From the NCBI GenBank assembly GCA_965249625.1, contig OZ252246.1, forward strand, positions 1,854,365 through 1,918,364: a DNA stretch of 64,000 nucleotides, in the 5' to 3' direction. The translations under genes were made by a program, and so were the position numbers. Source of the stretch: Nitrospinales bacterium. GTDB taxonomy: Bacteria > Nitrospinota > Nitrospinia > Nitrospinales > VA-1. How positions within the stretch are numbered: the first letter of the stretch is position 1; the number at the start of each line of letters is the position of its first letter. The notes under the pieces are model-generated. The model did not search any database. It saw nothing but the letters and a program-made list of their open reading frames with translations, and was not told the origin of the DNA. This document shows, piece after piece, positions 3,729-57,200 of this stretch.

Positions 3729-3789
3729 TTCTTTGGACGGACTACTGAAAGTTGAAACCTTTCAAGAAGAATACACCCAGAAACAGAAA

Positions 3790-4026: not shown

Positions 4027-4100
4027 TGTCCTTCTGTCATGGTGAATCCATTTTCTTTTTCCAGGATCCTTGACCTGAAACCATAAAAGCAAAACTAAAC

Positions 4101-4466: not shown

Positions 4467-4476
4467 TCAGAATAAA

Positions 4477-5127
4477 ATGGCCAAGCAAACCATCGAACCC
4501 AGATTCATTGCTGTTGAAGGTGCTATAGGCGCAGGCAAAACATCTTTGGTCAGCCTCCTTAAACAACAATATGGCGCCCGGGTGATTCTGGAGGAGAATG
4601 ACTCCAATCCCTTTATCGCGAAATTTTATGAGGATCAGGAGACCTACTCCTTTCAAACCCAGATTTTTTTTTTACTGAACCGTTACAATCAGTATATGGA
4701 GCTAGCGCAGAGAGACCTGTTTAACTCCGTGGTCGTGATCGACTACCTGTTTCAACGCGACAAAATATTCGCACAACTCAACCTGGAAGATCACGAGTAT
4801 CGCCTGTATGAACAAATCTTCAACCTACTCGGCCACAAAGCTCCGAAACCCGATTTAGTCATTTTTTTGCAGGCCAGCACCGAAGTGTTGATGGAGAGAG
4901 TTTCCAAAAGAGGCCGGGATTATGAAGCTTTTATGGACCCCGATTATCTTGATTCGGTGAACAAGGCTTTCAATAATTTCTTTTTTTACTACTCCGACAC
5001 ACCGCTTTTGGTCATAAATACCAATGAAATCGACTTTGTTGAAAAAAAATGTGACCTGGAAGAGTTGATTAACAAGATCAACAGCCATAAAATAGGCAGA
5101 GAATATTATAACCCGCTTGGATCCTAA
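4477..5127 (+). CDS. deoxynucleoside kinase family protein
   Basis: P-loop IAVEGAIGAGKTSL. The dNK-like layout includes NPFIAKFYED, the DYLFQRDKIFA motif region and the lid region ERVSKRGRDYE. Confidence 0.8.
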   Translation: MAKQTIEPRFIAVEGAIGAGKTSLVSLLKQQYGARVILEENDSNPFIAKFYEDQETYSFQTQIFFLLNRYNQYMELAQRDLFNSVVVIDYLFQRDKIFAQLNLEDHEYRLYEQIFNLLGHKAPKPDLVIFLQASTEVLMERVSKRGRDYEAFMDPDYLDSVNKAFNNFFFYYSDTPLLVINTNEIDFVEKKCDLEELINKINSHKIGREYYNPLGS

Positions 5128-5305
5128 CGGACCGGGACGGAGTAAGCTTCATAAATCAAGGCGAACGTAATTCGGGGACCCCATTGGCGGCCTCAAAATT
5201 TTTCATAGCGTTCTCCATGCTACGCTGCTCCCACAGCATTTGCTGCTGGTTTCATTTTTTGATCCCCCCCCCGTTTGGCCTCAAGCCTTATCCGTATAAA
5301 AAATC

Positions 5306-8864: not shown

Positions 8865-10052
8865 GGGCCTGTTGCCCAAACCTTTTGATGGGAGCGTGGG
8901 TTTATAAGGATTATAATTTATCCAGCTAGTTTTTGTTGTTCTACAGTTTTAATCTTTTTTTCCGGGAGTCCTTCCCATGATGAAACGCGAAACCCCGTGG
9001 CAGAGCGTATTCTTTAACTATGCCGTGAATCTTGAAGATCGGATACCTCGAGATCACGAGTTGCGGCAAGTTTCTTCCGTTTTGAACCTGGATTTTATGT
9101 ATGAACAAGTAAAGGATAAGTACGGCCACAATGGAAACGAATCGGTTCCGCCTCCGGTGATTCTAAAACTGATGTTGCTGCTCATCTTTTACAACGTTCG
9201 TTCCGAACGTGAGTTGATGCGTACGCTTCCGTACCGGATGGATTGGCTCTGGTTTCTGGGTTATGGTCTGGACACTGTGATTCCTAATCACAGCGTATTA
9301 TCGAAGGCGCGTTTCAGATGAGGTGAATCAGTTTTTAAAGAGTTGTTCGAGCGAATCGTACACCAATGTGTAGAGTTGGGTTTGGTGGATGGGAAGAAAT
9401 TGTTCATGGACTCAAGCCTTGTCGATGCGAACGCTTCCCGGGAATCGGTGGTCGACATGCATTCACTCAGCGCATTTACATTCGACCCTGAAAGCGATAC
9501 CTATATCTGCCCGGCGGGCAAACGCTTGCGGCTGAAGACCCGCCGGTTAAAAGAGCAGCGTATGTATTACGCCGCCAGAGCAGACGACTGTAATGCCTGC
9601 GAACTAAAATCCCAATGCACACGTAGTGCAACCGGACGCACGATCCAACGGTATGATCGTCAGGACGACCTCGAAGAAATGCGCGCAATGGCAAAGACCC
9701 CAAAAGGAAAACAAGACCTGAAAACGAGACAGCATCTTATGGAACGGTCATTCGCATATTCAGTGCCCTTGGGATTCAAAAGGGCGCGGTGGCGAAGATT
9801 ATGGCGGGTCCAGATTCAAGAATACCTGACTGCATCCATTCAAAACATCAAACGAATGATCCAACACCTGAAAAAATCGATTCACAGTAATGCATTGAAG
9901 GTCGTACAACGATTCAAAAACTGCTTGCAGGCTTCAACTTGGGGAGGAATGAATCTGAGTTTTGGGATTTCAATTTAGAAAAGAAAATTCGTAGGAAATA
10001 CACAAAATCAATATCAGCAACCCTTCACGGCAACCCTTTGGGCAACAGGCCC
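8865..10052 (+). mobile_element. IS5/IS1182-like insertion sequence with 16-bp terminal inverted repeats
   Basis: Left end gggcctgttgcccaaa (8865..8880) is the exact reverse complement of right end tttgggcaacaggccc (10037..10052). T-runs flank both ends (tctttt / ttttct). The element encloses the DUF772-type transposase frames. Confidence 0.75.
8977..9978 (+). pseudogene. IS5/IS1182-type transposase interrupted by in-frame TGA, probably also internally shortened
   Basis: ORFs 8977..9321 (InsH/DUF772-like N-terminus: IPRDHELRQV...PPPVILKLMLLLIFYNVRSERELM) and 9343..9978 (LFMDSSLVDANAS, DTYICPAGKRL, CNACELKSQC, HLMERSFAY...GFKRARWRRLWRVQIQEYLTASIQNIKRMI) are in the same frame. They are separated by TGA at 9319..9321, at a position where relatives as I recall them have Trp (ARFR-W-GE). 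The total of about 330 codons is short for this family. Confidence 0.7.
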
Positions 10053-10200
10053 TTTTCTTGGCTACAAAGTTTCGGGTCTGCCAAAAACCCCCACAGTAAA
10101 ATCCTTGAGCGGAATCATACCATAAGAGGAGGTGATCCTTCGAGGGCCTCAGGATGACGACTAACCCTCTCCCTTATCTGGGAGACCCGTAAACTAGATT

Positions 10201-28000: not shown

Positions 28001-28500
28001 GCGAGATTCTTCACTACGTTCAGAATGACAATGCGACCTCGTTCAGCATGACAATACTGGGCCATTTTGTCATCCTCGAGGAACCGAAGGCGACGAAGGA
28101 TCTCGCCTTGCACTAACTTGGGGATTACCCCTTCGGGGCACGAAAGCTTGAGTGAAACATCACGTCTTCACGGAGCCTGTGCTAAGCGAAGCCGAAGCAT
28201 TCAGAATAACAATGCGACCTCGTTCAGCATGACAATACTGGGCCATTTTGTCATCCTTGAGGAGCCGAAGGCGACGAAGGATCTCGCCTTGCACTAACTT
28301 GGGGATTACCCCTTCGGGGCACGAAAGCTTGAGTGAAACATCACGTCTTCACGGAGCCTGTGCTGAGCGAAGCCGAAGCATTCAGAATGACAATGCGATC
28401 TCGTTCAGCATGACAATACTGGGCCATTTTGTCATTCTGAGGAACAAGGTGACGAAGACGTGATATTTTTCCTTAAACTTCATGCCCCTAAAGGGGTAAA
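28001..28500. repeat. mosaic repeat array A
   Basis: The array contains gtcat(t/c)ct(g/c)a-type modules in both orientations, two M1 modules at 28128..28163 and 28309..28344 (+), and one M1 at 28460..28497 (-). It lies between the convergent genes ending at 27954 and 28545. Confidence 0.85.
28019..28448. repeat. 181-bp tandem direct repeat, about 2.4 copies
   Basis: Units start near 28019, 28200 and 28381. The track ORFs 28067..28297 and 28248..28463 are offset by exactly 181 nt and give near-identical peptides (SSRNRRRRRISPCTNLGITPSGHESLSETSRLHGACA...). Confidence 0.85.
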
Positions 28501-35709: not shown

Positions 35710-37149
35710 TCATAAACTCTCCAAATCTTCCTCTATCGCATCGCCAGCTTCCAGTAAATTATCAGTGATGTCTTCTAATTGAGGAATTGAATGACCTACA
35801 ATTCCTTCAAATGAGCCATACATTGATAAAATATTCTCTTCAACTTGTTTAATTTGCTCCTCCCGCTTAGCCCAACGGTTTTTAGTGGTTCTAATTTCTT
35901 TTTGAAGCTCCTCATTCATTCGGCTAAAACTGTCTAGACAATCAGAAATCCTGTTTTTGAACCCTGGAGAAGTTAAGTAACCATAAAGCTTTTCCATTTT
36001 TAGATTTTTACCCTCTAAGGTCTGATCTTTTTGATGCAATTCAATAATTGCATTTCTGAGAATTTTGGCTAGTGGAACAACTAAATCCATATTAGTTACC
36101 CAAACATTCCTGATATCACCAAAATTTGAGATTTCTTTAGGAAGAGTTTTAGATACCAATATAGAAAAGTTCGCATTAACTACCTTCTGATCAGCCTTTA
36201 ATTTATCAATCCAAGGATCTTGCCACAATTTAGTATTTTTGGATTCCCACAAAATAATGCCACAGGTCCTACCTTGAAGACGTATTGTTTGAACAATATC
36301 AGCACCATTGACACCAACAGGAACATCTTCGATGATATCCTCGTAAAAGTTTTCTTTTAAAGTAGCTTTTAATTGTTCTTCAGTTACTTCTCCTTGTATT
36401 TGCTGTGATCCTTGTTCCACCGTTTGCTTTAAATTATTGATTTCTTTTCTAAGAAGCTCAATGGTTTTTTCTTTTTCCCCAAGTTTTTGCCTGGATTCAC
36501 TTTGAGTTTGATCTTGGGTTTCTTTTATTAGTTTTTCTTTGTTGAAAAGAAAATCCTTTTCCATCTCCCTTTTTTTGTCTTCTAATTGATCCTTTTGTTT
36601 AATGAATTCCAATTCTAAGTCTTTACGCTCATTTTTTGCTTTTCTTAATTCTTCGTTTAGGTTTTTAATGTTGATTTCAACCTCAGCAATTTCCTTTTCT
36701 TTTTCAAAATCATATTTCTTTTTTAATTTACCTTTAGCTTCTATCACCTTTTTCTCCAATTCTCTATCAAAATCTTCTTTGGTTTCTTGCAATTTGCGTT
36801 CAGTTTTTCGGGCCTTTAGTTCGGCATCTTTTAGTTTTTCATTTACAGCCTGTTGTTCTTTTAGCTTTTCGTTTAAATCATTTAACTCTAATGAAAATTT
36901 GCTTTCCGCCTCATTGGTAAGCTCTATTTTTAAGTTATTTCTTTCTTTTAATAATTTTTCACTAATGGTTTTCTCAATTGACCCCTCTTTCTTTAATAAT
37001 GCTTTTTCTTTTTCAATTAACTCCTTTTCTTTTTCCTTGGCCTCTGATTCTATTTCAGTCCTCAACTCCTGGGCTATTTGACTAGTAAGGACATCAGTTA
37101 AGGGGATTTCTGATTTACAATTAGGGCACGTAAGCAGTTGTTCAGCCAT
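35710..37149 (-). CDS. DUF2130-family protein: zinc ribbon, long coiled coil, C-terminal PD-(D/E)xK-like domain
   Basis: The N-terminus has CPNCKSEIPL. About 230 aa of K/E-rich heptad-like sequence follows. The C-terminus reads GADIVQTIRLQGRTCGIILWESKNTKLWQDPWIDKLKADQ (a D...ExK arrangement). The gene is markedly AT-rich: I counted 17 G+C in the 60 nt of line 36601. Confidence 0.8.
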   Translation of the reverse strand: MAEQLLTCPNCKSEIPLTDVLTSQIAQELRTEIESEAKEKEKELIEKEKALLKKEGSIEKTISEKLLKERNNLKIELTNEAESKFSLELNDLNEKLKEQQAVNEKLKDAELKARKTERKLQETKEDFDRELEKKVIEAKGKLKKKYDFEKEKEIAEVEINIKNLNEELRKAKNERKDLELEFIKQKDQLEDKKREMEKDFLFNKEKLIKETQDQTQSESRQKLGEKEKTIELLRKEINNLKQTVEQGSQQIQGEVTEEQLKATLKENFYEDIIEDVPVGVNGADIVQTIRLQGRTCGIILWESKNTKLWQDPWIDKLKADQKVVNANFSILVSKTLPKEISNFGDIRNVWVTNMDLVVPLAKILRNAIIELHQKDQTLEGKNLKMEKLYGYLTSPGFKNRISDCLDSFSRMNEELQKEIRTTKNRWAKREEQIKQVEENILSMYGSFEGIVGHSIPQLEDITDNLLEAGDAIEEDLESL

Positions 37150-37340: not shown

Positions 37341-39131
37341 TTATTCTCCCGTATTATCTGATGTTAAGCGTTGCGACTGCGACTGGCAAAGTTTATAAAA
37401 AACTCCTTTTTGTTGCAACAGTTCCTTTCGAGGGCCGTATTCCAATATTTTTCCCTGCTTCAATACAAGAATTTTGTCGGCGTGCAGAAGGGTGGATATC
37501 CGATGTGCAATTATAATGCTGGTTCTTCCACGCGTCAATTCCCGGATTCCATTTTGGATCTGGCTCTCGGTTTCAGGGTCAACGCTGGAAGTCGCTTCAT
37601 CCAGCACCAGTATGCGTGGATTGCTGGCCAAAGCCCGGGCAAAAGACAATAATTGCCGCTGGCCGGAGGAAATCCCAACCCCGCCTTCCTTTAGCTCCTG
37701 CTCATATTTAAAAGGAAGACTGCTGATAAAATTATGTGAACTGACGGCTTGCGAAATAGACTCGATTTCTTCCTGACCCATCTGTTGGTTTCCCAGTCGA
37801 ATATTATCCGAAATATTTCCTGAGAATAAAAATACATCCTGCTGAACAAGAGCAATCTGGCGGCGTAAATCGTATTTATTGATATCCCTGATGGGTTTAC
37901 CGTCAAACCGAATATCGCCTTTTTGAATATCATAAAAACGGCAAAGGGCATTGATGAGGGTGGATTTTCCCGAACCCGTCGCGCCGACAATGGCAAGGCT
38001 CTCCCCTTCTGACAGGGAAAAACTGATGTCCTCCAAGATAAAGTTTTCATCATTATAGGCGAACCAGACATTCTTGAACTCAACCGCCCCCTTCATTTTG
38101 AAATCCGGGTGGGATGGAACCTTGTCGGGCAATTGTTCAGGCGTGTCCAGCAGTTCAAAAATCCGCTCAGAAGATGCCATGGCCGTTTGAATGATATTGA
38201 ATTTTTCCGCAAGGTCTCTTACCGGCTCAAAAAATTTCTGCAGGTACTGGATGAATGCCACCAGGATTCCCAACTGGATTTCATCCTGAACAAATCGCCC
38301 TCCCCCATACCAGATAACCATCCCCACAGCCAGCGAGTTGAACAAATCGATGGAAGGCATATACAGGGAATTGTAATAAACGGTTCTTAAATCCTCTTGA
38401 AGCCGGTTACGGTTAATGCCGGTAAAGTTTTCCAGATTCGTCTTTTCCCGGTTGAAGCATTGAACCGTATCCACACCTGATAAATTTTCCTGTAGATAAG
38501 AATTGAGCTCCGAAACATGCGCCCGATTTTTTCTAAGCGCGTCACGCGCTCGAATCCTGTATAGACGCGTACCCCACGCCAGCAACGGGAAAACCGTGCA
38601 GACCACAAGCGTCAGTCGCCAGTCCAGATAAAGCATGACAGCAAAAATTCCTGTCAATGTGAACAGGTCGCTGAAAATAAGGATGAGCCCGGAAGTCAAC
38701 ATTTCATTGAGAACCTCAACATCATTCACCACCCGGGTGATCATTTTCCCAATGGGGTTCTTGTCAAAATAGGAAAACGACATCTTATGGAGATGGGCGA
38801 ACACTTTAGAACGCAGGTCAAACATGACTTTCTGGCCAATGTACTGCATTAAATAGTTCTGGAAAAACTGAAACACGAATGAAGCGATCAATACAGCCAG
38901 ATACAGGCCCGCGACGACATCCAGCCCATTAAGATCAGAAACTTTTATATAGTCGTCAATAACGATCTTGGTGAAGTAGGGGCCTGCCAGATTGAGCAGA
39001 GAAACTCCTAAAAGCAGGAATATAGCGAGCGCCACCCACTGGCTATAAGGTTTCAGATAAACAAGCACCCGCTTAAATAAAACCCACTCGCGGTACCGGT
39101 CTTTCATGTTTTCCATGTAGGTTCCACTCAT
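37341..39131 (-). CDS. ABC exporter, fused permease/ATPase (second subunit of a probable heterodimer)
   Basis: Walker A GATGSGKST, signature ISSGQRQL, Walker B ILVLDEATS and AHRIST. The ATG at 39131 overlaps the upstream TGA by 1 nt. Confidence 0.9.
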   Translation of the reverse strand: MSGTYMENMKDRYREWVLFKRVLVYLKPYSQWVALAIFLLLGVSLLNLAGPYFTKIVIDDYIKVSDLNGLDVVAGLYLAVLIASFVFQFFQNYLMQYIGQKVMFDLRSKVFAHLHKMSFSYFDKNPIGKMITRVVNDVEVLNEMLTSGLILIFSDLFTLTGIFAVMLYLDWRLTLVVCTVFPLLAWGTRLYRIRARDALRKNRAHVSELNSYLQENLSGVDTVQCFNREKTNLENFTGINRNRLQEDLRTVYYNSLYMPSIDLFNSLAVGMVIWYGGGRFVQDEIQLGILVAFIQYLQKFFEPVRDLAEKFNIIQTAMASSERIFELLDTPEQLPDKVPSHPDFKMKGAVEFKNVWFAYNDENFILEDISFSLSEGESLAIVGATGSGKSTLINALCRFYDIQKGDIRFDGKPIRDINKYDLRRQIALVQQDVFLFSGNISDNIRLGNQQMGQEEIESISQAVSSHNFISSLPFKYEQELKEGGVGISSGQRQLLSFARALASNPRILVLDEATSSVDPETESQIQNGIRELTRGRTSIIIAHRISTLLHADKILVLKQGKILEYGPRKELLQQKGVFYKLCQSQSQRLTSDNTGE

Positions 39132-40903
39132 CAAAGAAAAATCTCCATTTCTCTGGCCAATGATTGATTCTGGAACAGGCCCGCATAGACTCCGCCCGCC
39201 TGGGTCAGCGAAACATGACTGCCCTGTTCAAGTATTTTTCCCGCATCCATCACGATTATCAGGTCCGCGTCACGAACAGCCGATAACCTGTGGGAAATAA
39301 TCAGGGTGGTGGTTTGACTTGGCTGGCCTTGGATATTCCTTAAAATTTCTTCTTCGGTGTCCGAGTCCAGATTTGAAAACGCGTCATCAAGAATCAGCAC
39401 TTCGGGTTTCTTGATCAAAGCACGGGCCAGGGCCACCCTTTGCTTCTGGCCTCCCGACAACGAAACCCCACGCTCGCCGACCAACGTCTCCAATCCCTCC
39501 GGGAACCGTGCCACATCTTTGCTCAATCCGGCGATCTGGATAATTTCTTCCAACTCAAGGTCTGTGGCAGATCCCCTTCCCAGCACAATATTGTCGCGAA
39601 TGGATGCAGAAAATAAAAAGGGTTCCTGACTCACATAACCTATGGATTCTCGCAGTTTTTGCAGAGGGATTTCTTTTATGGGAAGGTTTCCTATTAACAA
39701 AGCACCCGCAGTCGGATCATAAAAGCGTAAAAGCATTTGAGCCAAAGTGGTTTTTCCAGAACCGATCACACCCACCACTCCCAGCGTCTGGCCTCTGGGA
39801 ATTTTAATATCGACTCCCCTTAAACTTGGTGTTTCTGCATCGGGGTAGGTAAACTGCAGTCCCTGAAACTCTATGCCACCCATTGGCTCCAGAGAACCAG
39901 CTCCTTCAAGGGCCGGTTTTATTTCAGGCTGGGCCTTAAAGATTTCATGAATACGGCTCATGGCCGCCATCCCTTTCTGGGTGAGGTTAAAAACATATCC
40001 GATTCCCATCATGGGCCATGAAAGAAGCATCAAATAACCATTAAATGCGACAAAAGATCCCAACGTCATGGAGCCGCCAATCACTGCCTTTCCTCCCAGC
40101 CACAAAGAAAGCATCGCCGCCACCCCTATAACAAACACCATTGTGGGCGTGAAAATTCCAAACATTTGCGTGACATACAGGTTTTTTTTGATGTATTCGT
40201 TATTCAGTTCTGCAAATTTTATTTTTTCATTTTCCTCCTGAACAAATGCGTGGAGAACCCGGATGCCAGCAAGGTTTTCCTGAACGTGACCTGTTATCAA
40301 AGCCAAATGCTCCTGCACCGCTTTATGACGCTTGCCGATTTCCTTAACAAAATAAAAAAACAAGAACGAAATAAAAGGAAGCGGCAGTAAAACCTTGAGA
40401 GCCAGATCAGCATTGATCCAGATCATCATGCTCATGGCGGTGATAATGACAAAAACCGCATCAATGAGAATCAACACCCCCAGCCCAATAAATTCCCTCA
40501 CCGCCCGCAGATCATTGGTGGCGCGCGACATGATATCCCCTGTCGTTTGCTTCAGGTACCATGCCCGGTCTAAAGTTAAAAGATGGCTGAAAAGCCGGTT
40601 CAGGATATCAAATTCAATTTTTCGGGAGGCTCCGAACATATACATCCTCCAGCCATAACGGCCCACTACAAGAAATAGAGCAATCAGCAAAAGAAGAAAC
40701 GCATATTTCAAAAGAATTTCTGAAGAAGGCTTCCCCGGCAGGACATCAATAAACTCCTTGATCAACCAGGGCACAACCAGCGTTATAGAATCCGTGATGA
40801 TTAAAGCCACGATGCCTAGTACCAGCTCCCTCTGGTATTTGGATATATACGGCCAGAATGATTTTAAGTTTTCCAATTTAAATCCTTTTCCTCTTCCCGC
40901 CAA
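39131..40903 (-). CDS. ABC exporter, fused permease/ATPase (first subunit of a probable heterodimer)
   Basis: Walker A GVIGSGKTT, signature LSGGQKQR, Walker B VLILDDAFS and SHRLSA. The start is TTG in the track, and the exact start is uncertain. Confidence 0.9.
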   Translation of the reverse strand: MAGRGKGFKLENLKSFWPYISKYQRELVLGIVALIITDSITLVVPWLIKEFIDVLPGKPSSEILLKYAFLLLLIALFLVVGRYGWRMYMFGASRKIEFDILNRLFSHLLTLDRAWYLKQTTGDIMSRATNDLRAVREFIGLGVLILIDAVFVIITAMSMMIWINADLALKVLLPLPFISFLFFYFVKEIGKRHKAVQEHLALITGHVQENLAGIRVLHAFVQEENEKIKFAELNNEYIKKNLYVTQMFGIFTPTMVFVIGVAAMLSLWLGGKAVIGGSMTLGSFVAFNGYLMLLSWPMMGIGYVFNLTQKGMAAMSRIHEIFKAQPEIKPALEGAGSLEPMGGIEFQGLQFTYPDAETPSLRGVDIKIPRGQTLGVVGVIGSGKTTLAQMLLRFYDPTAGALLIGNLPIKEIPLQKLRESIGYVSQEPFLFSASIRDNIVLGRGSATDLELEEIIQIAGLSKDVARFPEGLETLVGERGVSLSGGQKQRVALARALIKKPEVLILDDAFSNLDSDTEEEILRNIQGQPSQTTTLIISHRLSAVRDADLIIVMDAGKILEQGSHVSLTQAGGVYAGLFQNQSLAREMEIFL

Positions 40904-41055: not shown

Positions 41056-42480
41056 ATGTACGGAGTTATACTGGCCGGGGGAAGCGGCACCCGGTTCTGG
41101 CCTAAAAGCCGCGAACAAAGCCCAAAACAACTGCAGAAAATCGTTGGCACCGGAACCATGCTTCAAAACACCGTTCAACGCCTGCTGCCCCTGGTTTCTA
41201 TTGAAAATTTATACCTGTGCACCAACCATCAGCAAGCGGTCGAGACCCTTCGCCAGCTGGATTCCTACGGTTTTTTCCCCGATCATCTCATGGCAGAACC
41301 CTGCAGCAGAAATACCGCATTAGCAATCGGTTTGATGGCAAAAGTAATCATCGAAAAAGATCCTGGTGCGGTCATGGGTGTTTTTCCCGCTGACCATGTT
41401 GTAGCGAACTCTGAGAACTTTATCAAGACACTTCAAAGGTCAGAAACTCTGGCCAAAAAGGGTTATCTCGTTACCCTTGGTATCCCGCCGACCCGGCCTG
41501 AAACCGGATTCGGTTACTTGCAACAGGGAGCTGAAATAGAAGATGGAATCTATCAGGTAGAACGGTTTGTAGAAAAACCTGGCCGACCTGAGGCTGAACA
41601 ATATTTAGAGAATGGCTATTATTTTTGGAATTGCGGAGTCTTCGTCTGGAAGGCTTCTGTCATTCTTGAGGAATTGCAACAGCATGCAGAAAATATTTAT
41701 TCACAGCTTGAAACTATTGCCAGATGCATCCGGAACGCAAAAGGAAAATCCGCCTATCTGGAACTGGATGAAAGGGGCCGCAGCCTTTTTTCTTCCCTGC
41801 CCAGTCTTTCCATCGACTGTGCGGTCATGGAAAATTCGTCAAAGGCAGTCCTCATCCCTGCAGATATCGGTTGGAACGATGTCGGTGCCTGGACTGCTTT
41901 GGACGATGTATCCAAAAAAGATTCTAAAGGTAATATCATCAGCGGAAATGTTCTGGTTCAAGATTGCAGCAACTCCATAATCCAGGCGCAAAATCGGCTC
42001 ATCGCTGTATTGGGATTAAAAGATACAATCGTGGTGGACAGTCCCGATGCCCTCCTGGTCTGCGCCAAGGAGCGTTCCCAGGATGTAAAAAAACTGGTGG
42101 AGTCTCTCAATGAAAACGGCCACCCTGAAGGCAAACAGCCTGCTACCGTTAATAAACCATGGGGGTCCTATACGGTATTGGATTCAGGGTCTTCTTATGT
42201 GCTAAAGCGTATCGAAGTCTTGCCCGGAGAAGCACTCAGCCTGCAATCTCATCAGCACCGCAGTGAACATTGGACTGTTGTCTCCGGCTCAGCGGAAGTG
42301 GTGCGGAACAAAGAAACTTTTCAATTAAAAAGTAACGACTCCATCACCATCCCCAAAAATACCAGGCACAGACTGGGGAACCCAGGTTCCGACCTGCTAA
42401 TAATTATTGAAATTCAGTTTGGCCATCTCCTGGATGAATCCGACATCTCACGTTACGAAGACCGCTACGGTCGTTGCTGA
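41056..42480 (+). CDS. manC: mannose-1-phosphate guanylyltransferase / mannose-6-phosphate isomerase (bifunctional type)
   Basis: The N-terminus is VILAGGSGTRFWPKSR. The C-terminal cupin reads KPWGSYTVLD...RIEVLPGEALSLQSHQHRSEHWTVVSG. Confidence 0.9.
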   Translation: MYGVILAGGSGTRFWPKSREQSPKQLQKIVGTGTMLQNTVQRLLPLVSIENLYLCTNHQQAVETLRQLDSYGFFPDHLMAEPCSRNTALAIGLMAKVIIEKDPGAVMGVFPADHVVANSENFIKTLQRSETLAKKGYLVTLGIPPTRPETGFGYLQQGAEIEDGIYQVERFVEKPGRPEAEQYLENGYYFWNCGVFVWKASVILEELQQHAENIYSQLETIARCIRNAKGKSAYLELDERGRSLFSSLPSLSIDCAVMENSSKAVLIPADIGWNDVGAWTALDDVSKKDSKGNIISGNVLVQDCSNSIIQAQNRLIAVLGLKDTIVVDSPDALLVCAKERSQDVKKLVESLNENGHPEGKQPATVNKPWGSYTVLDSGSSYVLKRIEVLPGEALSLQSHQHRSEHWTVVSGSAEVVRNKETFQLKSNDSITIPKNTRHRLGNPGSDLLIIIEIQFGHLLDESDISRYEDRYGRC

Positions 42481-47033: not shown

Positions 47034-48236
47034 ACCCGTACCGGGCATGAAGTTTAATGAAGAGGATATCACAGGCTCCTCAAGGATGACAAATTGGCGT
47101 CTCTTGTCATGCTGAACGACTGCTTTGTCATAGGGTTAGTGCAAGGCGAGATCCTTCGTCGCCTTAGGCTCCTCAAGGATGACAAATTGGCGTCTCTTGT
47201 CATGTTGAACAAAAGGATGACAAATTGGCCTTGTATTGTCATTCTGAACGCAGTGAAGAATCTCGCTTTTCTTGTCATTCGTGGGAGAGATCCTTCGTCT
47301 CCCTAAAGGGACGTGCCAGGCCTTAGGCTCCTCGAGGATGACAAACTGGCGTTTCTTGTCATTCTGAATACTTCGGCTTCGCTCAGCACAGGCTCCTCAA
47401 GGATGACAAAATAGCCTTGCATTGTCATTCTGAACAACTGCATTGTCATTCTGAACGAAGTGAAGAATCTCGCTTTTCCTGTCATTCGTAGGAGAGATCC
47501 TTCGTCTCCCTAAAGGGACGTGCCAGGCCTTAGGCTCCTCGAGGATGACAAAATGGCGTCTCTTGTCATTCTGAATGCTTCGGCTTCGCTCAGCACAGGC
47601 TCCTCAAGGATGACAAAATAGCCTTGCATTGTCATTCTGAACAACTGCATTGTCATTCTGAACGAAGTGAAGAATCTCGCTTTTCCTGTCATTCGTAGGA
47701 GAGATCCTTCGTCTCCCTAAAGGGACGTGCCAGGCCTTAGGTTCCTCGAGGATGACAAATCTGAATGCTTCGGCTTCGCTCAGCACAGGCTCCGCATTGT
47801 CATTCTGAACGAAGTGAAGAATCTCGCTTTTCTGTCATTCAGGGAGAGATTCTTCGTCGCCTTGTTCCTCAGAATGACAAACCACGTTGTTCCTCAGAAT
47901 GACAAAATGGGGTAACCTCGCTTTTCTTGTCATTCTGAATGCTTCGGCTTCGCTCAGCACAGGCTCCGCTTTGTCATTCTGAACGAAGTGAAGAATCTCG
48001 CTTTTCTTGTCATTCAGGGAGAGATTCTTCGTCACCTTGTTCCTCAGAATGACAAAATGGCCTTGCTTTGTCATGTTGAACAAAAGGATGACAAACTGGC
48101 CTTGTATTGTCATTCTGAACGAAGTGAAGAATCTCGCTTTTCTGTCATTCAGAGAGAGATTCTTCGTCACCTTGTTCCTCAGAATGACAAACCACGTTGT
48201 TCCTCAGAATGACAAACTGGGGTAATCTCGCTTCTC
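47034..48236. repeat. mosaic repeat array B (1.2 kb)
   Basis: It starts with an M1 module (acccgtaccgggcatgaagtttaatgaagaggatatcac). A dense patchwork follows, made of gtcattctgaacgaagtgaagaatctcgc, gagat(c/t)cttcgtc..., ggctcctcaaggatgacaaa and ttgttcctcagaatgacaaa modules. Many occur as mutually inverted pairs. The array fills the whole space between the giant gene's stop (48237) and the PBP operon start (47007). Confidence 0.9.
47281..47840. repeat. 207-bp tandem direct repeat inside array B (2 full copies plus 1 copy with deletions)
   Basis: Units are 47281..47487, 47488..47694 and 47695..47840 (shortened). Track ORFs 47303..47485 and 47510..47692 are offset by exactly 207 nt and are nearly identical. 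Confidence 0.85.
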
Positions 48237-51200
48237 TTAAAACCGGATATCGCCTTTCAGCATGATGGCGTGGTCAGTAACATTGCTGTTACTCTCTCTG
48301 CGCTCACCGGTCAGGTTCAGGTCAAACAACGCATCAAGTTCCCATCTCATCCCCAGGCGGTAACTTCTGGAAGAGTCGCCGAGAGTCATCTCACTGTAGG
48401 GAGTCAGCAGTCCCCGTCCGTCGGGAGCGGTCAGTCCGTAACCCAGGCGGGCATCCAATCGCGCGCCGTAACCCTGGTCACCGCTGACCTCATCGCCCAG
48501 GCCCTGCTGCCATACTTTTTGCGTGCCACTGCCTGTATCGCCGTAACCGGGACTCAGGCTGAACGACAGTCCCCGTCCGTTGCTGCTCTGCTCCAGAAGA
48601 ATCAGGCCGGAAACACCCCATTCCTCATAGTTGTCCCGTCCTACCAGGGTGCGGGCCCTGCCTTCCAAGGTCAGGCCGGCGGTCGGATCGGTGTAGCGGA
48701 AACCGGCGCCCAGCTCGGCCCCGAAACCGGTCTCGCCGTCACCGCCGTCATACCGCACTCCAGCCTCCAGGCTCGGTTCCACATAAGCCCCGTCAGCCAG
48801 CGTATGCTTATACGCCCCTTCCAGGATCATGCGCAACAGGCTGGACTCCACTTCCAGTCCCGCTATATCATCACTGCCCTCCACTTCCATCTCAGTCAGC
48901 AAAGCTGAACTCTTGAGCTGGAACAGGACCGGGCCTGCCCGCGACAACTGGGCATTGCTACCCACAGCCACGTTCCACGCTTCAACATCGCTCGATGCCG
49001 GGTCCTGCTCATCAGTGATCTCCAGGTCACCCCAGCCGTAGCCGGCAGTGGCCCACAGGTCCAGCTGTCCGGCCAGCGCCTCCCAGCTCACATAAGGGTG
49101 GACGCTGGTGAGGTCCAGCTCGTAATCGCCGCTGCTATCGTCGCCGTCCTGATAGTCCAGATCGCCATGGCTCCAGGATACTGTCAGACCCGTCAGCAGG
49201 TCGTCACGCGGTCGGCCATCCAGTCCCAGATGGGCGCTGAACAGGCTGCCGTCCCAGTCGATTGTCCCGCCGGAACCTTCGAGACTGCGGTAGCCGCCCC
49301 CGCCCCACAAGGTCAGGGAGGACAGTATCCCGCTGTCCGGTCCGCCCGCATCACTCAACGGCAGTACGAAGTCGGAGTTACCCAGCACATCCTTAAGACT
49401 CAGCGTACCGTCAGCAATGGCCTGGCCGTGGGCAGATGCCGCCCCGGCCAATGTGGACTGCCCGGCAATAGTGACGGACCGGGCATTGCCGCCGTTCCCA
49501 GCCTGACTGATACGTTGCGTTATCGCGCTCACCGTCTGGTCCGCTATGGCACGCGCCATTTCCGGCAGGATCACGGCATTGAGGTCGGTAAACCCCTCGT
49601 CCGTCACATTGGTAACCCTCACCGTTACCGCAACTGCGTCGCTGGTCCCGCTCGCGTCATCGGTGGCGGTGACGGTGATTTCATAATCGTTGTCGGTGTT
49701 GGCATCGGTCGGCATCTCAAAGTCCGGCGGGGTGCTGAAGGTCAAGACGCCAGCGTTAGTGATGGAGAAGTCATCCGCATCGGCCCCGCCGAGGGCGTAA
49801 CTGGTAATGGTCCTGCTATCAGTCGTGGTCGCGCTGAAGGAGTGCACTTCTGCCGTATCATTCTCGGCAAATACTATCGGTGTTGTTGGTGGTGGAGTCA
49901 CAACCGGTTTGGTCGGGGTCGCGGCCTGCACGGCGGCGGTCGGGTTGCTGGTGACTGCTTTACCGCTACCCTCACCATCGGTGTAAGTGGCGATGACTCG
50001 AATGGTCCTGTCTTCATCGGTTGCCACCGGCGTGTAGGTTGCACCGGTGCCCGCGCCGCTGATGTCGGTGTAGGTACCGTCTCCGCCTGCACTTCGCCAT
50101 TGATAGGTGATGGTGCCAACTTCCACACCATCCGGCGAATCCGCGTCGGTTACCGTGCCGGCGGTCAATTCCACGCTAACCCGCGCGGTGCCGGTGATGT
50201 CGCTGATGGCACCCGTCTCATCCACATTGGTAACCGTCACCGTTACCGCCAGCGGTGCGCTTGCCAGGTTGCTTGGGACGCCATTGGTTTCCGTGGCGGT
50301 AATGGTGACCTCGTAGGTCTCGGTGTGTGCATCGTCTTCAAAGTCCGGCGGATTGTTGAAAGTCAATTCGCCCTTATTAGGAGCAGCGCTATTAGGAGCA
50401 ATCGAGAACAATGCCGCATCCGTGCCGCCAGTGATTGACCAGATGATGGCGTTGCCCTCGGCATCGGTCGCGGTGTAGGTCTCCACCGGGGTGTCGGCGT
50501 TCTCGGCATAATTCGGTGCTGCATTGCCACTGACTACCGGCGCGGTGTTAGCCGCTGCCGCCGTCGCCATGCCGTTCACGCTCGCCGCGCTCTCGGGGCC
50601 TGGGTTCGGGGTGGTGGCAGCATCCATCACGCTGTTCGCGGCAAGGATCAGGCTGAAGGTTGCCGCGGTCGGGGTGAAGTTGATGGTGTAGGCGGCACCG
50701 CTACCGCTCACGCTATTCACCGTGACAAAGGTGGAAGTGGAGAAAGCATCCACCACCAAACCGGTTACCGCCTCGTTGAAGGTGATGCCGTGATCCTGCG
50801 GCGTGCCAATCACACCTGCGGTAATGGTGCCGAGGGTCACCGTCGGCGCGGTGGTGTCAGGTACATCCGTTACTGTGTATGTTCTAGTTACCGAGGTAGC
50901 CGCATTGCCTGATGCATCTACAGAATCATAAGTGATTATGTAATCGTCTAGTGTGCCAACCTCAACAGTTCCCGTTGTAGTCACTGCAGAACCGTCATCA
51001 GTTGTGACTCCATCAAGTAAGTTAGGTGGTGCTGAACCAATTTGTAGTGTAACGGTAGAAGGAACAACTGTGATGACTGGCGCTGTGGTATCAAGCGTAA
51101 TGACTAATTCTGATGACGCACCAGATTCATTACCTGCTGCATCCGTAGCCGTTGCGGTGAAGGTGTTGGCGCCTTCAGATAGTGCAACTGCTGCAAATGA

Positions 51201-54200
51201 GAAATCCCCTGAGCCATCAGCAGTTGTTGTACCCGCTGAGGTTGTTCCATTGAATAGTGCTACAGTCGCTGCGGCCTCAGCCGTGCCCTCAATTGTGATT
51301 GGCGATGAACCAACAGTTGCCGGTGCTGTGGTAATTGCAGGAACTGCCGGTGCTGTGGTGTCCTCCACAGTAATTACAATTGATTGTTGGGCTGGTGTGT
51401 TACCTGCCGCATCATCCGGCGCATTATATAATACGGTGTAAACTCCTACAGCACTGGTGTCAGGTGTGTCGCCTGTAATTGCTACTGCTCCAGAGTAAGC
51501 CGGGTCATTATCAGTTACCGTAGCGCCAAGTTCAGTGTAAGTGTTGGTTGCAGTTAACTCTATTGTTTCACTAGATCCTGCTACTGCGATAACTGGTGGG
51601 GTAGTATCTGTAACGGTAACTGTTCTGGTTACTGTTTCCGCAGAATTTCCAGACGCATCATCCACATTAAAGGTTACAGTGTATGTATTAGCCACACTGG
51701 TATTAACCGTATCGCCACCAACAACTACACCACTTGCGATATCTCCATCAGCATCATCAGTGGCAGAATAGGTAAATGGCGTGTATTCCGCTCCAAGTTC
51801 AACAGAGAATGAATCTTCAACAACTGCGATTACTGGTAGGGTAACATCATCAGCCGTAGTAGTTGTAGTTACAGGCAGATCAGCAGAGTTGTCACTCGTC
51901 CCGGCAGCGTTAGTTGATGTGGCGTGATATGTATACGCTGTTCCGGCAGTCAATCCAGTATCAGTGTAGGATGTTTCAGTGGTAGTAGTTGTTATGGAAG
52001 CGCCATCTCTAAACAACTCGTATCCTGTGGCGCCATTCACTGCAGTCCATTGAATCACAATGCTGGTCGGAGTGACTGCTCCTTGTACAAGTACAGGTGC
52101 GGCAGGTGCTTCAATTGGTGTAGTCAAGGTAGTGGCAGCAACCTCGTTGGAATTAGCAGTTGTTCTGCTCCCCACTGTCGCGGTAATGACATACCTATAC
52201 TCGGTTGCAGCAGTCAAGCCAGTATTAGTGGCAGTCAATGCAGTGGTTGTTGGCACTGTTACATCAGCACCGCCCGCAACAATTCTGGTCAGGGTGTAAC
52301 TATCGGCATTATCCACTGCACCCCATGAGAGCGTTATGCTTGTATCAGTAATTGTTCCTGCGACAAGTACAGGTGGGGTAGTTACAACCAACACAGCGGA
52401 TGGGTTACTTTGCTCGGAAGCATCGTTAAGTGCTATGACGTGATAAGTGTAAGTTGTTCCAGGAGTCACGTCCGTATCAGTGTATGCTGGTAAATCACCA
52501 CCCAGAGTAGTGTGAAAAACCCTTGCTATGCAGCCGGTTTTATCAGACCTAACCAAGCAATAGGCCAAGGTGCCATCCACTGCAGTCCATGTAATCGTAA
52601 CACTTGTCGAAGTGACTGCTCCGAGAATGAGTGTGGGTGCGGCGGGTGCAGTTGGCGCAGGCAAGGTAGTTGCAGTAACCTCGTTGGAATTAGCACTTAT
52701 TCGGCTCCCAACTGTCGCGGTAATGACATACTTATACTCGGTTGCAGGTTCCAAGTTCTCATCAGTGGCAGTCAATGCAGTGGTGGTTACTGTTACATTA
52801 GCACCGCCTGCAACCATTCTGGTCAGGGTGTAACTATCGGCATTATCCACTGCAGTCCATTCAAGCACTACGCTTGATGCCGTAGTTGTTCCTGCAGAAA
52901 GTATCGGTGCGGCGGGTGGTTCAGTTGGCGCAGGTCCAGTCGTTATAGGTGCAGAATCTATAACTGCGTCAAGGCCAAGGAAAATACTAACCTCGCCAGT
53001 ATAATCATAGCCCACTGTTTCTGTGTGAATGTATGGGACGGCTGCATCATTAATGCTAAAGCCAGTGGTAGAACCAGGATCAAATTGAATTTCAAAATCA
53101 CCGGTGTGTGACGACGTGAAGGTTATAACTACTTTATCTCCGTCAGTCGCATGGGGTTCATCGTTGAGAGTGTACACGGCAGGTGAAGTTGGCGCAGCAT
53201 TAGTCCTTGCCTCAACCTCGTTAGAATCTGCACTTGTCCCAACAGAATTTGTTGCGGTAACGACATACTTGTACGGTGTCTCAGGAGTCAGGCCAGCATC
53301 AGTGGCAGTCAATACATTGCCTGTTGCCACTTCAATATCATTAATGCCATCAACAATTCGGGTCAGGGTATAACTGTCGGCATTATCCACTGCACCCCAT
53401 GAGAGCGTTATCGTTGTCGGAGTAACTTCTCCGAGAACAAGTGCGGGAGTAGCCGGTGCAGCGGTCGGCGTGGCGGTGGCTTCGTTTGACGCTTCGCCCC
53501 CGCCCGCCGAGTTCACCGCGCGCACTTGGAAGAAGTATGCGGTGTCGTTGGTCAAGCCGGTCACGGTGTATTCGGTCGCGGTGGCACTGTTTGGAATTGC
53601 TGTCCACGGATTGGTATCGTCATAAGTTCCCGCTGTTGTGCTTTGGCGAACCTCATAGCCGGTGATTGCCGCGCCGCCGGTTGCGCTCGGTGCCGTCCAG
53701 GTCAGCGTGACCGTGGTATCGCCCGCATCCGCCGTCAAACCGGTCGGCGCGGCGGGTGCTGTTGTTGTGTCAGCGGCGGTCGTTCCCGTGTTGGTCACAT
53801 AAGCGCCTGCCACTTCGGCGGTGGCGCCGCTGCCGGCTTTGGCGCGCACGCGCACAGTGTAGCCGGTGTCTGCCGTCAAGCCGGTGATGGCGGCGGTCTC
53901 GGCAGTCACCGCGACATTCGCAGCCGTGTAGGTGCTGTCGTCCGCGCCAGTCACTTTATATTCCACATCAAAGCCGGTGGTCGGGTCTTTGTCGGTGTCG
54001 GATCCTTGCGTCCAGGACACCGCGAAGGCGCTCTGGGCGGGCGAGCCCGCGTTGACGGTGACGCTGGCAATGGCGCGCGGTTGCGCCACATTGGGGATGA
54101 TGATGTCCACCATGTCGGTAACGGGCGAGTTGCCGCCGCCAGACAGGGTCACGCTCAACTCAAAAGTCAAGGTGGTGTCGGCGGTTACATAAGGCGCGGT

Positions 54201-57200
54201 GAAACTCGCATCCTCCATGTCCGAGCCGGTGATGGCCAGCGGGGTGGACGGCAGTGAGCCATTGGTCCCGGTGTGCGTCCATAAAATGGTCGGGTCGGTG
54301 CCAGGATTGGTGATGGTGCCATCCAGATTCACAGTCGTGTTTTCCAGAACGCCAGGTTGATCCGCGCCGGCATTCACCGTCAGGGCGGTATCCACGGTGG
54401 CGGTCGGCGTGGCGGTGGCTTCGCCTGACGCTTCGCCCGCGCCCACCGAGTTCACCGCGCGCACTTGGAAGAAGTATGCGGTGTCGTTGGTCAAGCCGGT
54501 CACGGTGTATTGGGTCGCGGTGGCGCTGTTTGGAATTGCCATCCAATCGACGACGGCGGCGGAGCCGGTGGTGTCATAGTCGCCCGTGGCGTCGCTTTGG
54601 CGATACTCATAGCCGGTGATGTCCGCGCCGCCGGTTGCGCTCGGTGCCGTCCAGGCCAGCGTGACCGTGGCATCGCCCGGCGTCGCCGTCAAACCGGTCG
54701 GCGCGGCGGATACGGTAGGCGGCGTGACCGTCACGGTATCGGTTGCCGCGCTGGTGGCAGTTTTGTTGCTACCCTCTCCATCGGTGTAAGTGGCAACGAC
54801 TCGAATGGTCCTGCCGACATCATCGGCATCCGGCGTGTAGGTTGAAGTGGTGCCCGCGCCGCTGATGGGGGTGTAGGCGCCGTCTCCGCCTGCGCTTTGC
54901 CAGGTATAACCATCACCCCTAACCGCGTCATCCGGGTCGGTTACGCTGCCGGCGGTCAATTCCTCGCCTACCCGCGCGCTGCCGCTGATGTCGCTGATGC
55001 TTCCCGGCTCATCCACATTGGTAACCCTCACCGTTACCGTAACTGCGTCGCTGGTCTCGGGCTCGCTGTCGGTGGCGGTGATGGTGATTTCATAATCGTT
55101 GTCGCCATCGCCATCGGTCGCTGACTCAAAGTTCGGCGGTGTCTTGAAGGTCAAGACGCCGACGTTAGTGATGGAGAAGTCACCCGCTCCGGTTCCGCCG
55201 AGGGCGTAACTGGCAATCGTCCTGCCGCTAGTCGCGGTCGCGGTGAAGGTGTGCACTTCTCCCCCGCCATTTTCGGCAAATTCTATCGGCTCTGTTGGCG
55301 CCACCACAGTCGGTTTGGTCGGGGTCGGCTCGCTCACGGTGACGGTGCGGGTCAGCGTGTTGGAGACATTGCCGGCGAGGTCGGTGGCGATGTAGGTAAT
55401 GGTGTAGTCGCCGGCGGTGTTGGTGTCCACTGCGTTCACTGTCATAGCGCCAGGCCCGGCAATAGTGCTCACCAGAGTCTCCCCACTCCCCACTCCAATC
55501 ACACCCCTATCACTGTAAGCGTCGCCGTGGGCAACGGTAAAGGATGAAGCGCCATTCAGTCTGATGACCGGCGCCGACACATCAATTCGAATCGCACTGT
55601 CGGTAGCGGGTTGGGCAAGGGTGCCGGCGGCGGCATCAGCGGCGGTCATTTCGGCAATGGCATACCTTGCCAACTCACCGTCGCGTGCCTGAACCTGCGC
55701 CGCGACCACCACATAGGTCGCGGTGTAATCATTGTCACTGCCTTTTGTCGCCGTGACAGTTTGCCCGGCGATGGTCACGCTTGGGTCGTCTGCCAATGCC
55801 TGATTGACCGTGAAGGCAAGGGTCAGGGTGTCGCCGTTTATGGCGTAATCACCGGGGTTATCGCTAACGAGCGTGGGTTCCCCTCCTGCGTTAAAGGCAA
55901 GGGCTACGGCGGCCACCGGTGTTGCAGTGGTAGTTGCAGTAAACTCGGCGGAAGGAGTACTTGTCCCAACAGAATTTGTTGCGGTAATGACATATTTGTA
56001 CGGTGTCTCAGCAGTCAAGCCAGTATCAGTGGCAGTCAATACATTGCCTGTTGCCACTACTACATTATCATCGCCATCAACAATTCGGGTCAGGGTATAA
56101 CTGTTGGCACCATCCACCGCACCCCATGTAATCTCTATGCTGGTATCAGTGACTTCTCCGAAAACAAGTGTGGGAGTAGCCGGTGCAGTTGGGGTCACGC
56201 CCGCGGCACGCACGGGGGTGGTCTTGTCGCTCCTGGCATTTTGGGTGCGGCCTTCCTCGGCATAGGTGACCTCGACTCTAATGGTCTTGCCGCTATCGGC
56301 TGGCTTCAGCATGTAGGTATCGGATGGGCCACTGGCGATGTCGGTGGCGGTACTGCCTAATCCCGTTGGCTCGCTTTCCCAACGATAATTGGTGCCGGTA
56401 ACATCGCCATCCATGTTGTCCTGGGTGACGAAATCCGGGTCGGTCGCGCTGGCGGTCAATACCTGCCCGACCTGAACGTCGCCGGCGATGGTTGCCGTGC
56501 CGTCTTCATCCACATTGGTAACCGTTACCGTTACCGCAACTGCGTCGCTTGCCTCGACCGGCGCGCCGTTATCGGTGGCGGTAATGGTGATCTCATAAAC
56601 ATTATCGCCGGCGACGACAGTGGAATCGTCGGGGTCAGCGACATCGGTCGGCACTTCAAAGTTCGGCGAAGCCCTGAAAGTCAATGCGCCATCCGCATCA
56701 ATCGCAAACAAACCCGCATCCGCGCCACCGACTGACCAGGTGATGGTGTCGCTCTCGGCATCGGTCGCGGCGTAGGTATGCACCGCCGCAACATTCTCGT
56801 CAACCGTTATCGCATCATCGCCATTGGTTCTGGTAATCACCGGCGCGGTGTTGGTCACGGTCGGGGCGGTCACGGTGATGACTACCGTGTCGGTGCCGCT
56901 TGCCGGGGGCGTGCCATCATCGGTGACGGTCAGTTCAAAGGTATAAGCCCCAGCCGTGGCCGGCGCGATGAAGGTCGCGGTCGGGGTGGCGGTATCCGCA
57001 TTAGTCACGGCGATTACCGCTGTCGGCGCAGGCGCGCTGTCATCGGTCATGGTATGCACCCAAGCGTAAGTCAGCATATTGTCATTGGAATCGATGGTAG
57101 CAGAGCCGTCCAGCGTCACTTCGGCACCGGCAACTGCATTAGCATCGGCTCCGGCATCGGCAGACGGCGCATAGTTTGCCGTGCCCTCTACACTCGCCGC

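Follow-up and report, generated by a model that had tools for sequence, protein, structure and literature searches.

Classical mosaic genes include the penicillin-binding protein genes of Streptococcus and Neisseria and the iga protease autotransporter genes of Neisseria. In the amelioration concept that Lawrence and Ochman reportedly put forward in 1997, foreign DNA keeps the composition of its donor, chiefly at third codon positions, and drifts towards the value of the recipient. Here, we describe a giant gene in a 64,000-nt stretch of the genome of a Nitrospinales bacterium (contig OZ252246.1, positions 1,854,365 to 1,918,364; hereafter the window), whose product is a chain of Ig-like, FN3 and cadherin-like modules ending in an autotransporter β-barrel and whose codon usage changes abruptly from one module to the next.

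Two described systems are close to it. In Fusobacterium nucleatum, fap2, radD and cmpA are recombination-derived mosaic type Va autotransporter adhesins, and their patchwork has been attributed to horizontal gene transfer (HGT) and recombination among bacteria sharing a niche (PMC10995627). In sponge symbionts, attachment genes with cadherin and FN3 domains have been laterally transferred between distant lineages that share a host (Robbins et al. 2021, PMC8163846). We conclude that the window gene very probably encodes a type Va autotransporter adhesin assembled by in-frame exchange of horizontally acquired modules across phyla, with a codon usage that has not yet been adjusted.

Two codon dialects within one reading frame

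A sequence-only reading of the window had proposed that two codon dialects coexist in a single gene, a block of A/T-ending codons and two smaller patches being embedded in modules that prefer G/C-ending codons. Indeed, the G+C content at third codon positions (GC3) is about 0.70 in most of the giant open reading frame (ORF) and falls to 0.34-0.40 in three sharply bounded segments, a main block and two patches (Table 1). The profile, computed as a test of flatness, is not flat: in intervals of 100 codons, GC3 is 0.56-0.82 over most of the ORF and 0.23-0.42 across aa 3513-4380, and the G+C contents at the first and second positions (GC1 and GC2) stay flat where GC3 drops. Likelihood segmentation placed change-points between aa 3512 and 3513 (window 53463/53462; log-likelihood ratio, LLR, 64) and between aa 4380 and 4381 (window 50859/50858; LLR 119), within about 20 nt of the block edges first proposed (53445 and 50861). 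Both smaller patches were recovered by a two-state hidden Markov model (HMM), and none of 1000 shuffles of the high part reached a 90-codon interval as low as that observed. The details of the initial description also hold: the peptide quoted as an example, YKYVVTATNSVGTS, is found with exactly the quoted codons at window 53273..53232 (minus-strand codons), and the hand counts of G+C on single 60-nt lines (30/60, 42/60 and 30/60) are all exact on recount.

Both parts of the gene are unusual Thr/Ala/Val-rich sequence, and amino-acid composition or chance fluctuation could be considered, a priori, as the origin of the drop. The probability of this explanation is practically negligible. The amino-acid compositions of the high and low parts are nearly identical, and the residues of the low part, when encoded with the codon preferences of the high part, give an expected GC3 of 0.715 against 0.348 observed; the flat GC1 and GC2, the two LLR values and the shuffles argue in the same direction. 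The shift is obvious at the level of individual codons. The share of ACC among Thr codons is 0.24 in the low part and 0.66 in the high part, that of GAT among Asp codons 0.82 and 0.45, and that of ATC among Ile codons 0.16 and 0.59, respectively.

Five of the six dialect boundaries are located in inter-module linkers, and the transitions take a few codons, for instance ...EATATPT/AAPATPALVLGEV and ...TVTDVP/DTTAPTVTLG. The exception is the downstream edge of patch 2, some 14 residues into a Cadherin-like domain; this patch consists of one FN3 module and about 20 codons that reach into the start of the next Cadherin-like domain.

Neither dialect is that of the host

The MutL encoded in the window shares 95% and 93% identity with its counterparts in two Nitrospinales metagenome-assembled genomes (MAGs), OZ253496.1 and OZ242182.1, respectively, and 85-86% with MutL labelled Nitrospina sp. 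Between the short intergenic repeats of the window and intergenic DNA of the two MAGs, identity is 80-97%. These matches place the host in the Nitrospinales, within the phylum Nitrospinota. Across 24 ordinary window genes that we checked, GC3 is 0.46-0.63 (pooled value 0.53). The high dialect (0.70) departs from this host value by about +0.17 and the low dialect (0.35) by about -0.18.

To place both dialects, we used the genes flanking related loci in other genomes, namely the two Nitrospinales MAGs (GC3 0.51), the alphaproteobacterial Thermohalobaculum MAG CBDFHG01 (0.77; genome G+C about 0.63-0.68), other Alphaproteobacteria (0.76-0.77) and a low-GC bacterium (0.32), hereafter the low-GC organism. 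The relative synonymous codon usage (RSCU) of the window housekeeping genes correlates with that of the Nitrospinales MAG flanks at r 0.89. The high dialect correlates with its own housekeeping genes at 0.54 and with alphaproteobacterial flanking genes at 0.70-0.76, in agreement with the original proposal that the high-GC modules are compositionally foreign to the window. For the low dialect, r is -0.08 with its own housekeeping genes, 0.01 with the Nitrospinales MAG flanks and 0.67 with the flanks of the low-GC organism. The low-GC3 block is likewise foreign, a point which the sequence-only reading had missed.

It could be argued that foreign origin is confined to the high-GC part, the low block being what is native to Nitrospinales in this gene, or a captured native gene, since the block in its overall G+C (0.475-0.50) is like the flanking housekeeping DNA (about 0.47) and the two counts of 30/60, one in the block and one in a housekeeping line, are correct. 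This similarity is a coincidence, as the high GC2 of a Thr/Ala/Gly-rich protein combines with a low GC3 in the block, so that the 30/60 housekeeping line did not show the block to be native. At synonymous sites the two differ clearly: GC3 is 0.35 in the block and 0.53 in the housekeeping genes, and four-fold degenerate sites are 66% and 39% A+T, respectively. The RSCU correlations given above also contradict a native origin. Furthermore, the sampled relatives of the block and patches lie in the low-GC organism and in low-GC3 patches of Thermohalobaculum, and none were found in the sampled Nitrospinales loci. We therefore regard a native block as highly improbable.

Dialect follows module lineage

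The giant gene carries 12 FN3 modules, detected by an HMM built from the gene itself, and these belong to three subfamilies. FN3-A (two copies) has a GC3 of 0.79 and FN3-B (three copies) of 0.71-0.81, and the seven FN3-C copies have a GC3 of 0.38-0.41 wherever they are placed; indeed, both patches are single C modules amid high-GC modules. FN3-C shares at most 36% protein identity with A and B, and its copies share 27-76% among themselves. The FN3-C of patch 1 and the first one of the block share 72% protein identity. The block as a whole comprises five FN3-C modules, four Ig-like modules and one module of about 100 aa without a Pfam match. The Big_12 module after the block has homologues within the same protein, at aa 1749-1855 and aa 2181-2272.

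In a neighbour-joining (NJ) tree, which like all trees here has no support values, 54 FN3 modules taken from four genomes separate cleanly, with no exception, into a high-GC3 and a low-GC3 clade. The latter holds all seven window C modules, and copies from the window, Thermohalobaculum and the low-GC organism are intermixed within it. Together with the nearest relatives, which differ by dialect, this tree corroborates the earlier view of the gene as a mosaic of modules with different histories. The GC3 of C-type modules is 0.27-0.34 in the low-GC organism, 0.32-0.35 in Thermohalobaculum and 0.38-0.41 in the window; this slight rise from source to host is in the direction expected of early amelioration towards 0.53.

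Relatives in other genomes

The low block has no close homologue in 5.8 billion proteins, the best local identities being 47% and 61%, and a scan of JGI metagenomes with it gave only distant FN3 proteins (24-49% identity). The two best matches sit on two low-coverage contigs of one ENA sample; the matches on these contigs concern only the low-dialect parts of the window gene, occur in numerous tandem copies and have 45-78% protein identity. They belong to the low-GC organism, which is represented in another sample by a circular contig of 2,230,439 bp (L033, 8737x, ENA ERZ26167708), and this contig and the Thermohalobaculum contig come from the same ENA sample. It carries a giant FN3/Ig gene of at least 5,943 aa, whose GC3 is uniform (0.20-0.37 over the 2,283 N-terminal codons in the locus) and whose available part matches the low-dialect parts of the window gene only. 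The low-GC3 Ig-like modules have relatives only in this organism among the sampled loci, at 76-82% nucleotide identity.

The relatives of the C-terminal high-GC part are much closer (55-81% identity). A genome scan with the barrel revealed paralogues in both Nitrospinales MAGs (73-81% protein identity), about 18 paralogues in the Thermohalobaculum MAG (64-67%) and further copies in other Alphaproteobacteria, Rhodobacterales included. At the nucleotide level (blastn), the nearest relatives of the barrel unit are the paralogues of the Nitrospinales MAGs and locus L004 (80-87%). When the whole gene was painted by best match, the high-dialect passenger modules matched only Thermohalobaculum (64-94% nucleotide identity), the low parts matched the low-GC organism (67-83%) and the low patches of Thermohalobaculum (74-87%), and the barrel was best matched by Nitrospinales loci and L004 (87%). 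No synteny was detected between the window flanks and the barrel-bearing Nitrospinales loci, only short intergenic repeats being matched. In the midpoint-rooted NJ tree of barrels, the Rhodobacterales copies are basal and the Thermohalobaculum clade is sister to the Nitrospinales clade.

The two-dialect organization is observed in other genomes as well. Many of the Thermohalobaculum paralogues, with a GC3 of 0.7-0.9, hold patches of 100-200 codons with a GC3 of 0.17-0.45, which are FN3-C modules. The FN3-B/FN3-C joint at the upstream edge of the block (53463/53462) is also present in the Thermohalobaculum locus L024, with 83% identity on its left and 78% on its right, indicating that this joint predates at least one transfer. 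In the Nitrospinales MAG OZ253496.1 (L005, 9356-10000), a small autotransporter has Big_13/Big_6 modules of GC3 0.19-0.22 in its first 200 codons, fused to a barrel of GC3 0.7.

These data also bear on the quality of the assembly. The gene is repetitive, the assembly is of the metagenome type and related modules occur in several co-assembled organisms, so reads of organisms sharing adhesin modules could conceivably have been joined into one ORF. Such a chimera would, however, have had to keep the ORF open and in frame over 15.7 kb and across six dialect switches, five of them in linkers. Independent assemblies again show both the FN3-B/FN3-C joint and the two-dialect design, and a recorded contig of 2.86 Mb contains the window MutL sequence. 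Moreover, between the foreign segments and each of their sampled relatives there is a divergence of 6-25%, so that they are not the same molecules. An assembly artefact is, in our view, extremely improbable.

Some additional properties of these genomes were noted. The approximately 18 giant autotransporter paralogues of the Thermohalobaculum MAG (L010-L024, L026 and L028) have almost identical barrels, and several contain long arrays whose GC3 is 0.90-0.95 throughout. With the flanks at 0.77, these arrays amount to a third dialect. Transposases lie beside some of the paralogues. The low-GC bacterium of L033 is very abundant and rich in transposases.

Synonymous divergence and timing

Synonymous (dS) and nonsynonymous (dN) divergences were calculated with a custom implementation of the Nei-Gojobori method (NG86). 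The closest relationship concerns aa 3098-3412, which is 90.6-90.8% identical to the Thermohalobaculum loci L026 and L020 over 958 nt (blastn) and 92% identical over aligned codons, with a dS of 0.06 and a dN of 0.09. A further piece of 306 nt is 94% identical to a third Thermohalobaculum locus; for these most recently shared pieces (about 91% and 94% identity) dS is 0.05-0.08. High passenger modules compared with Thermohalobaculum have a dS of 0.06-0.22 (dN/dS 0.6-1.7), FN3-C modules 0.25-0.37 with Thermohalobaculum copies and 0.39-0.43 with the low-GC organism (dN/dS 0.6-0.9 in both comparisons), and low Ig modules 0.46-0.51 with the low-GC organism (dN/dS about 0.5). For the barrel, dS is 0.32-0.60 with Nitrospinales paralogues (dN/dS 0.23-0.36) and 0.66 with Thermohalobaculum (dN/dS 0.35). 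The cross-phylum dS values are unsaturated, unlike what vertical inheritance since the split of the phyla would leave.

The modules look old in protein identity (60-70%) because their amino acids change fast (dN/dS about 0.5-1.7), whereas they are young at synonymous sites and have, for this reason, retained the accent of their source. In two stretches, aa 3098-3412 (53763-54707) and aa 835-1039 (60882-61496), dN/dS against Thermohalobaculum reaches 1.5-1.7 at a dS of 0.06-0.08, with bootstrap 95% lower bounds of 0.88-1.03. Such values may reflect diversifying selection on the adhesin surface.

The dS values also help to judge whether the dialects could have arisen in place, either by GC-biased gene conversion among repeats or by selection on codons, mRNA structure or translation speed. 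The GC3 of FN3-C stays at 0.27-0.41 in three genomes of very different G+C, which at a first glance resembles a constraint intrinsic to the module, and the gene contains numerous repeats of its high-GC modules. Yet FN3-C is repeated too (seven copies) and has a low GC3, and in each dialect the whole pattern of synonymous codons, beyond the mere G+C level, is that of the ordinary genes of another organism. Since cross-phylum dS is only 0.06-0.5, retention of the accents requires no selection, and DNA identities of about 91-94% between Nitrospinota and Alphaproteobacteria cannot originate in place. An origin of the dialects within the gene is, on this basis, very improbable.

A gene probably assembled from horizontally acquired modules

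We propose that the codon dialects are marks of provenance of the modules. The barrel and most passenger modules would belong to a family compositionally native to high-GC Alphaproteobacteria (the Thermohalobaculum MAG and other Rhodobacterales), and the barrel family would have resided in Nitrospinales long enough to form a barrel clade of its own. The low-dialect FN3-C and Ig cassettes could be traced to a low-GC lineage, either directly or through alphaproteobacterial intermediates. After horizontal transfer, the modules would have been joined in frame by recombination between adhesin genes, the joints probably lying in the short Thr/Ala/Pro-rich linkers in five of the six cases. Passenger modules seem to have been swapped far more recently than the barrel (dS 0.06 versus 0.66). 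With cross-phylum dS values of only 0.06-0.5, the mutation pressure of the host (GC3 0.53) has erased neither accent.

Several points weigh against this proposal. The presumed direction of transfer is drawn from composition and from the midpoint-rooted NJ tree of barrels, and the window organism is presumed to share its habitat with both source lineages. In that tree, the L007 barrel from the 'Alphaproteobacteria bacterium' MAG CBDBJQ01 nests inside the Nitrospinales clade, beside the OZ242182 copies, a placement which could reflect transfer the other way round or the involvement of another partner in the exchange. As for the low block, its best matches reach 76-87% nucleotide identity and none is a near-identical donor copy, which means that the sampling has missed its immediate source. 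Of the six joints, a single one was found in another genome, the other five not being seen in the sampled loci, and the related loci extend no further than 10 kb upstream of the barrels, which leaves the comparison set incomplete. In the high part, amelioration should leave the highest GC3 in the segments nearest Thermohalobaculum, a trend that is weak in the data (Spearman 0.37, p 0.03). Regarding the vehicle, no mobile element adjoins the giant gene, and scans of viral_contigs for a phage gave nothing closer than 40% over 60 aa.

On a larger scale, the gene could be one product of a community-wide pool of adhesin modules that extends across phyla. Whole cassettes of the FN3, Ig and cadherin types would then circulate frequently, at sub-genic resolution, among Nitrospinota, Alphaproteobacteria and a dominant low-GC symbiont living together. 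Each lineage would insert them in frame onto its own type of autotransporter barrel, and positive selection would keep them diverse. The dN/dS of 1.5-1.7 in the modules shared last and the contrast in dS between passenger modules (0.06) and barrel (0.66) are the observations behind this idea. We advance this idea tentatively and consider it somewhat less probable than its opposite. If it were true, the codon dialect would constitute a readable barcode of module provenance, and the surface repertoires of the community would evolve as a shared toolbox, not genome by genome.

Domain organization and secretion route

The N-terminus of the giant protein, where a type Va autotransporter would carry its Sec signal peptide, falls beyond the window, as the reading frame is unclosed at 63998. 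According to Pfam, the protein is a chain of β-sandwich modules (fn3, Cadherin-like, Cadherin, Bact_surface_Ig-like, Big_12, Big_13 and PKD), and its passenger modules each span about 90-100 aa. A search of the last 480 aa gave a match to PF03797 (Autotransporter) at aa 4899-5015 (E 8.9e-10; 39.2 bits against a cutoff of 26); this match is partial, covering model positions 3-123 of 255, and PF03797 is also present in the homologues of the C-terminal part with 55-81% identity. The protein ends in ...DIRF directly before the stop codon, and a C-terminal aromatic residue is typical of outer-membrane β-barrel proteins. Passengers of type Va systems usually form a right-handed β-helix, although this is not obligatory; in the passenger described here, no pertactin-type (β-helix) match was found with Pfam, an architecture atypical for type Va. 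Collectively, the PF03797 match and the terminal DIRF point to a giant classical (type Va) autotransporter with an unusual Ig/FN3/cadherin passenger, as predicted from the sequence of the part inside the window. Its function is presumably adhesive.

A giant adhesin of the type I secretion system (T1SS) with RTX repeats was considered as another candidate and ruled out by domain content. Adhesins of that class carry RTX nonapeptide repeats and a T1SS signal at the C-terminus, and an ABC/MFP/TolC operon lies next to their gene. Pfam detected no RTX (HemolysinCabind) repeats in the protein. The ABC genes at 37341-40903, about 7 kb from the giant ORF, encode ordinary exporters with ABC_membrane and ABC_tran domains, and a guanylyltransferase-like ORF (41056-42480) as well as SPOR and PBP1 genes are situated in between. 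Given the C-terminal autotransporter β-barrel, the secretion route would be type Va, not type I.

The two copies of an internal duplication of 0.8 kb (Table 1) are 95.7% identical in DNA, and copy 2 stops a few codons short of the upstream edge of the low-GC3 block. Plus-strand antisense ORFs of up to 454 aa overlie high-GC parts of the gene (49098-50438, 56778-58142 and others); GC-rich coding DNA commonly yields long antisense ORFs by chance.

Table 1. Features of the giant gene, with positions in the window and in the encoded protein
Feature	Window position	Strand	Residues (aa)	GC3	Remarks
Giant ORF	48237..63998	minus			at least 5,253 codons; stop codon 48237-48239; frame open to window end
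Internal duplication, copy 1	60600-61397	minus	868-1133
Low-GC3 patch 2	59649..59966	minus	1345-1450	0.40	single divergent FN3-C (aa 1348-1429)
Low-GC3 patch 1	55920..56192	minus	2603-2693	0.35	single FN3-C (aa 2611-2690)
High-GC3 stretch	53763..54707	minus	3098-3412		near-match to Thermohalobaculum L026 and L020
Internal duplication, copy 2	53481-54278	minus	3241-3506
High-GC3 FN3-B module	53466..53741	minus	3420-3511	0.71	directly upstream of block
Main low-GC3 block	50859..53462	minus	3513-4380	0.34	868 codons
FN3-C module 1 of block	53202..53441	minus	3520-3599	0.38
Other FN3-C modules of block	52665-52901, 52377-52631, 52128-52367, 51864-52091	minus
Low-GC3 Ig-like modules	50871..51815	minus			four modules by Pfam
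Bact_surface_Ig-like in block			4062-4129, 4143-4201, 4337-4376		match at aa 4337-4376 partial
Big_13/Big_6 in block			4235-4304
High-GC3 Big_12 module after block	50589..50858	minus	4381-4470		begins exactly at change-point
C-terminal autotransporter unit	48240..49595	minus	4802-5253	0.70

Other features of the window

Tandem intergenic repeats are found at 28019-28457 (181 nt x2.4), 47235-47759 (207 nt x2.5) and 48168-48217 (25 nt x2), the latter two just downstream of the stop codon of the giant gene. Pieces of these repeats are 80-94% identical to intergenic DNA of the Nitrospinales MAG loci L004, L006 and L029, which suggests a lineage-specific element resembling repetitive extragenic palindromes (REP) or miniature inverted-repeat transposable elements (MITE). 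The DUF2130 gene at 35710-37149 (minus strand, 479 aa) forms an island with a G+C of 0.31 and a GC3 of 0.28, against about 0.5 in its neighbours; this region looks like a separate small foreign island between the ABC transporter and housekeeping genes. A fragment of a DDE_Tnp_1_6 transposase is located at 9343-9978, and the 100 nt beside it (9968-10067) are 97% identical to the first 100 nt of the Nitrospinales MAG locus L008, indicating a mobile element common to both genomes.

Comparison with known systems and significance

Within species, mosaic adhesin genes are a familiar phenomenon. The window gene shows that horizontal transfer can act on single modules across phyla, and very recently (dS about 0.06), and that GC3 segmentation by itself can reveal such module-level transfer in raw sequence. 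Methods that detect HGT gene by gene, or that bin sequences by the taxonomy of single genes, would go wrong on genes of this kind. In addition, the module pool that Nitrospinales have in common with the low-GC organism and the Thermohalobaculum MAG makes it tractable to study how attachment surfaces diversify among bacteria of one habitat.

With the multi-thousand-residue T1SS RTX adhesins of the LapA, SiiE and MpIBP type, the window protein shares its size, its predicted location at the surface, its tandem Ig-like and cadherin-like modules and a presumably adhesive function, but it lacks RTX repeats and has a C-terminal autotransporter barrel. It resembles the attachment genes of sponge symbionts in its cadherin and FN3 domains, its presumed role in attachment and its sharing between distant lineages, here Nitrospinota and Alphaproteobacteria (dS 0.06). 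The sponge study, however, detected transfers of whole genes by MetaCHIP, whereas in the window gene the unit is a module within one ORF and two foreign sources are represented. A search of the literature for a link between Thermohalobaculum and sponges gave nothing usable.

Like the classical mosaic genes, the window gene contains blocks within an ORF that have closer relatives in another species than their flanks do, and its breakpoints are sharp. In the classical cases, on the other hand, the donors are congeners or close relatives, the exchanged stretches are arbitrary and do not correspond to domain cassettes, and selection is exerted by antibiotics or antibodies. Amelioration has usually been applied to whole genes or islands, and the window gene shows two opposite departures in one reading frame; since amelioration takes time, both accents are still legible.

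The Fusobacterium adhesins are likewise encoded by large type Va adhesin genes that are a patchwork of segments from different lineages. There, exchange takes place between subspecies of one species complex and was found from allele alignments, without a compositional contrast. In the window gene, the segments have their matches in organisms of different phyla, there is a two-fold difference in GC3 between them, and most coincide with entire structural modules. The process is thus already known in kind, and what is new is its reach across phyla, its action on single structural modules and the presence of two opposite non-native signatures in one frame.

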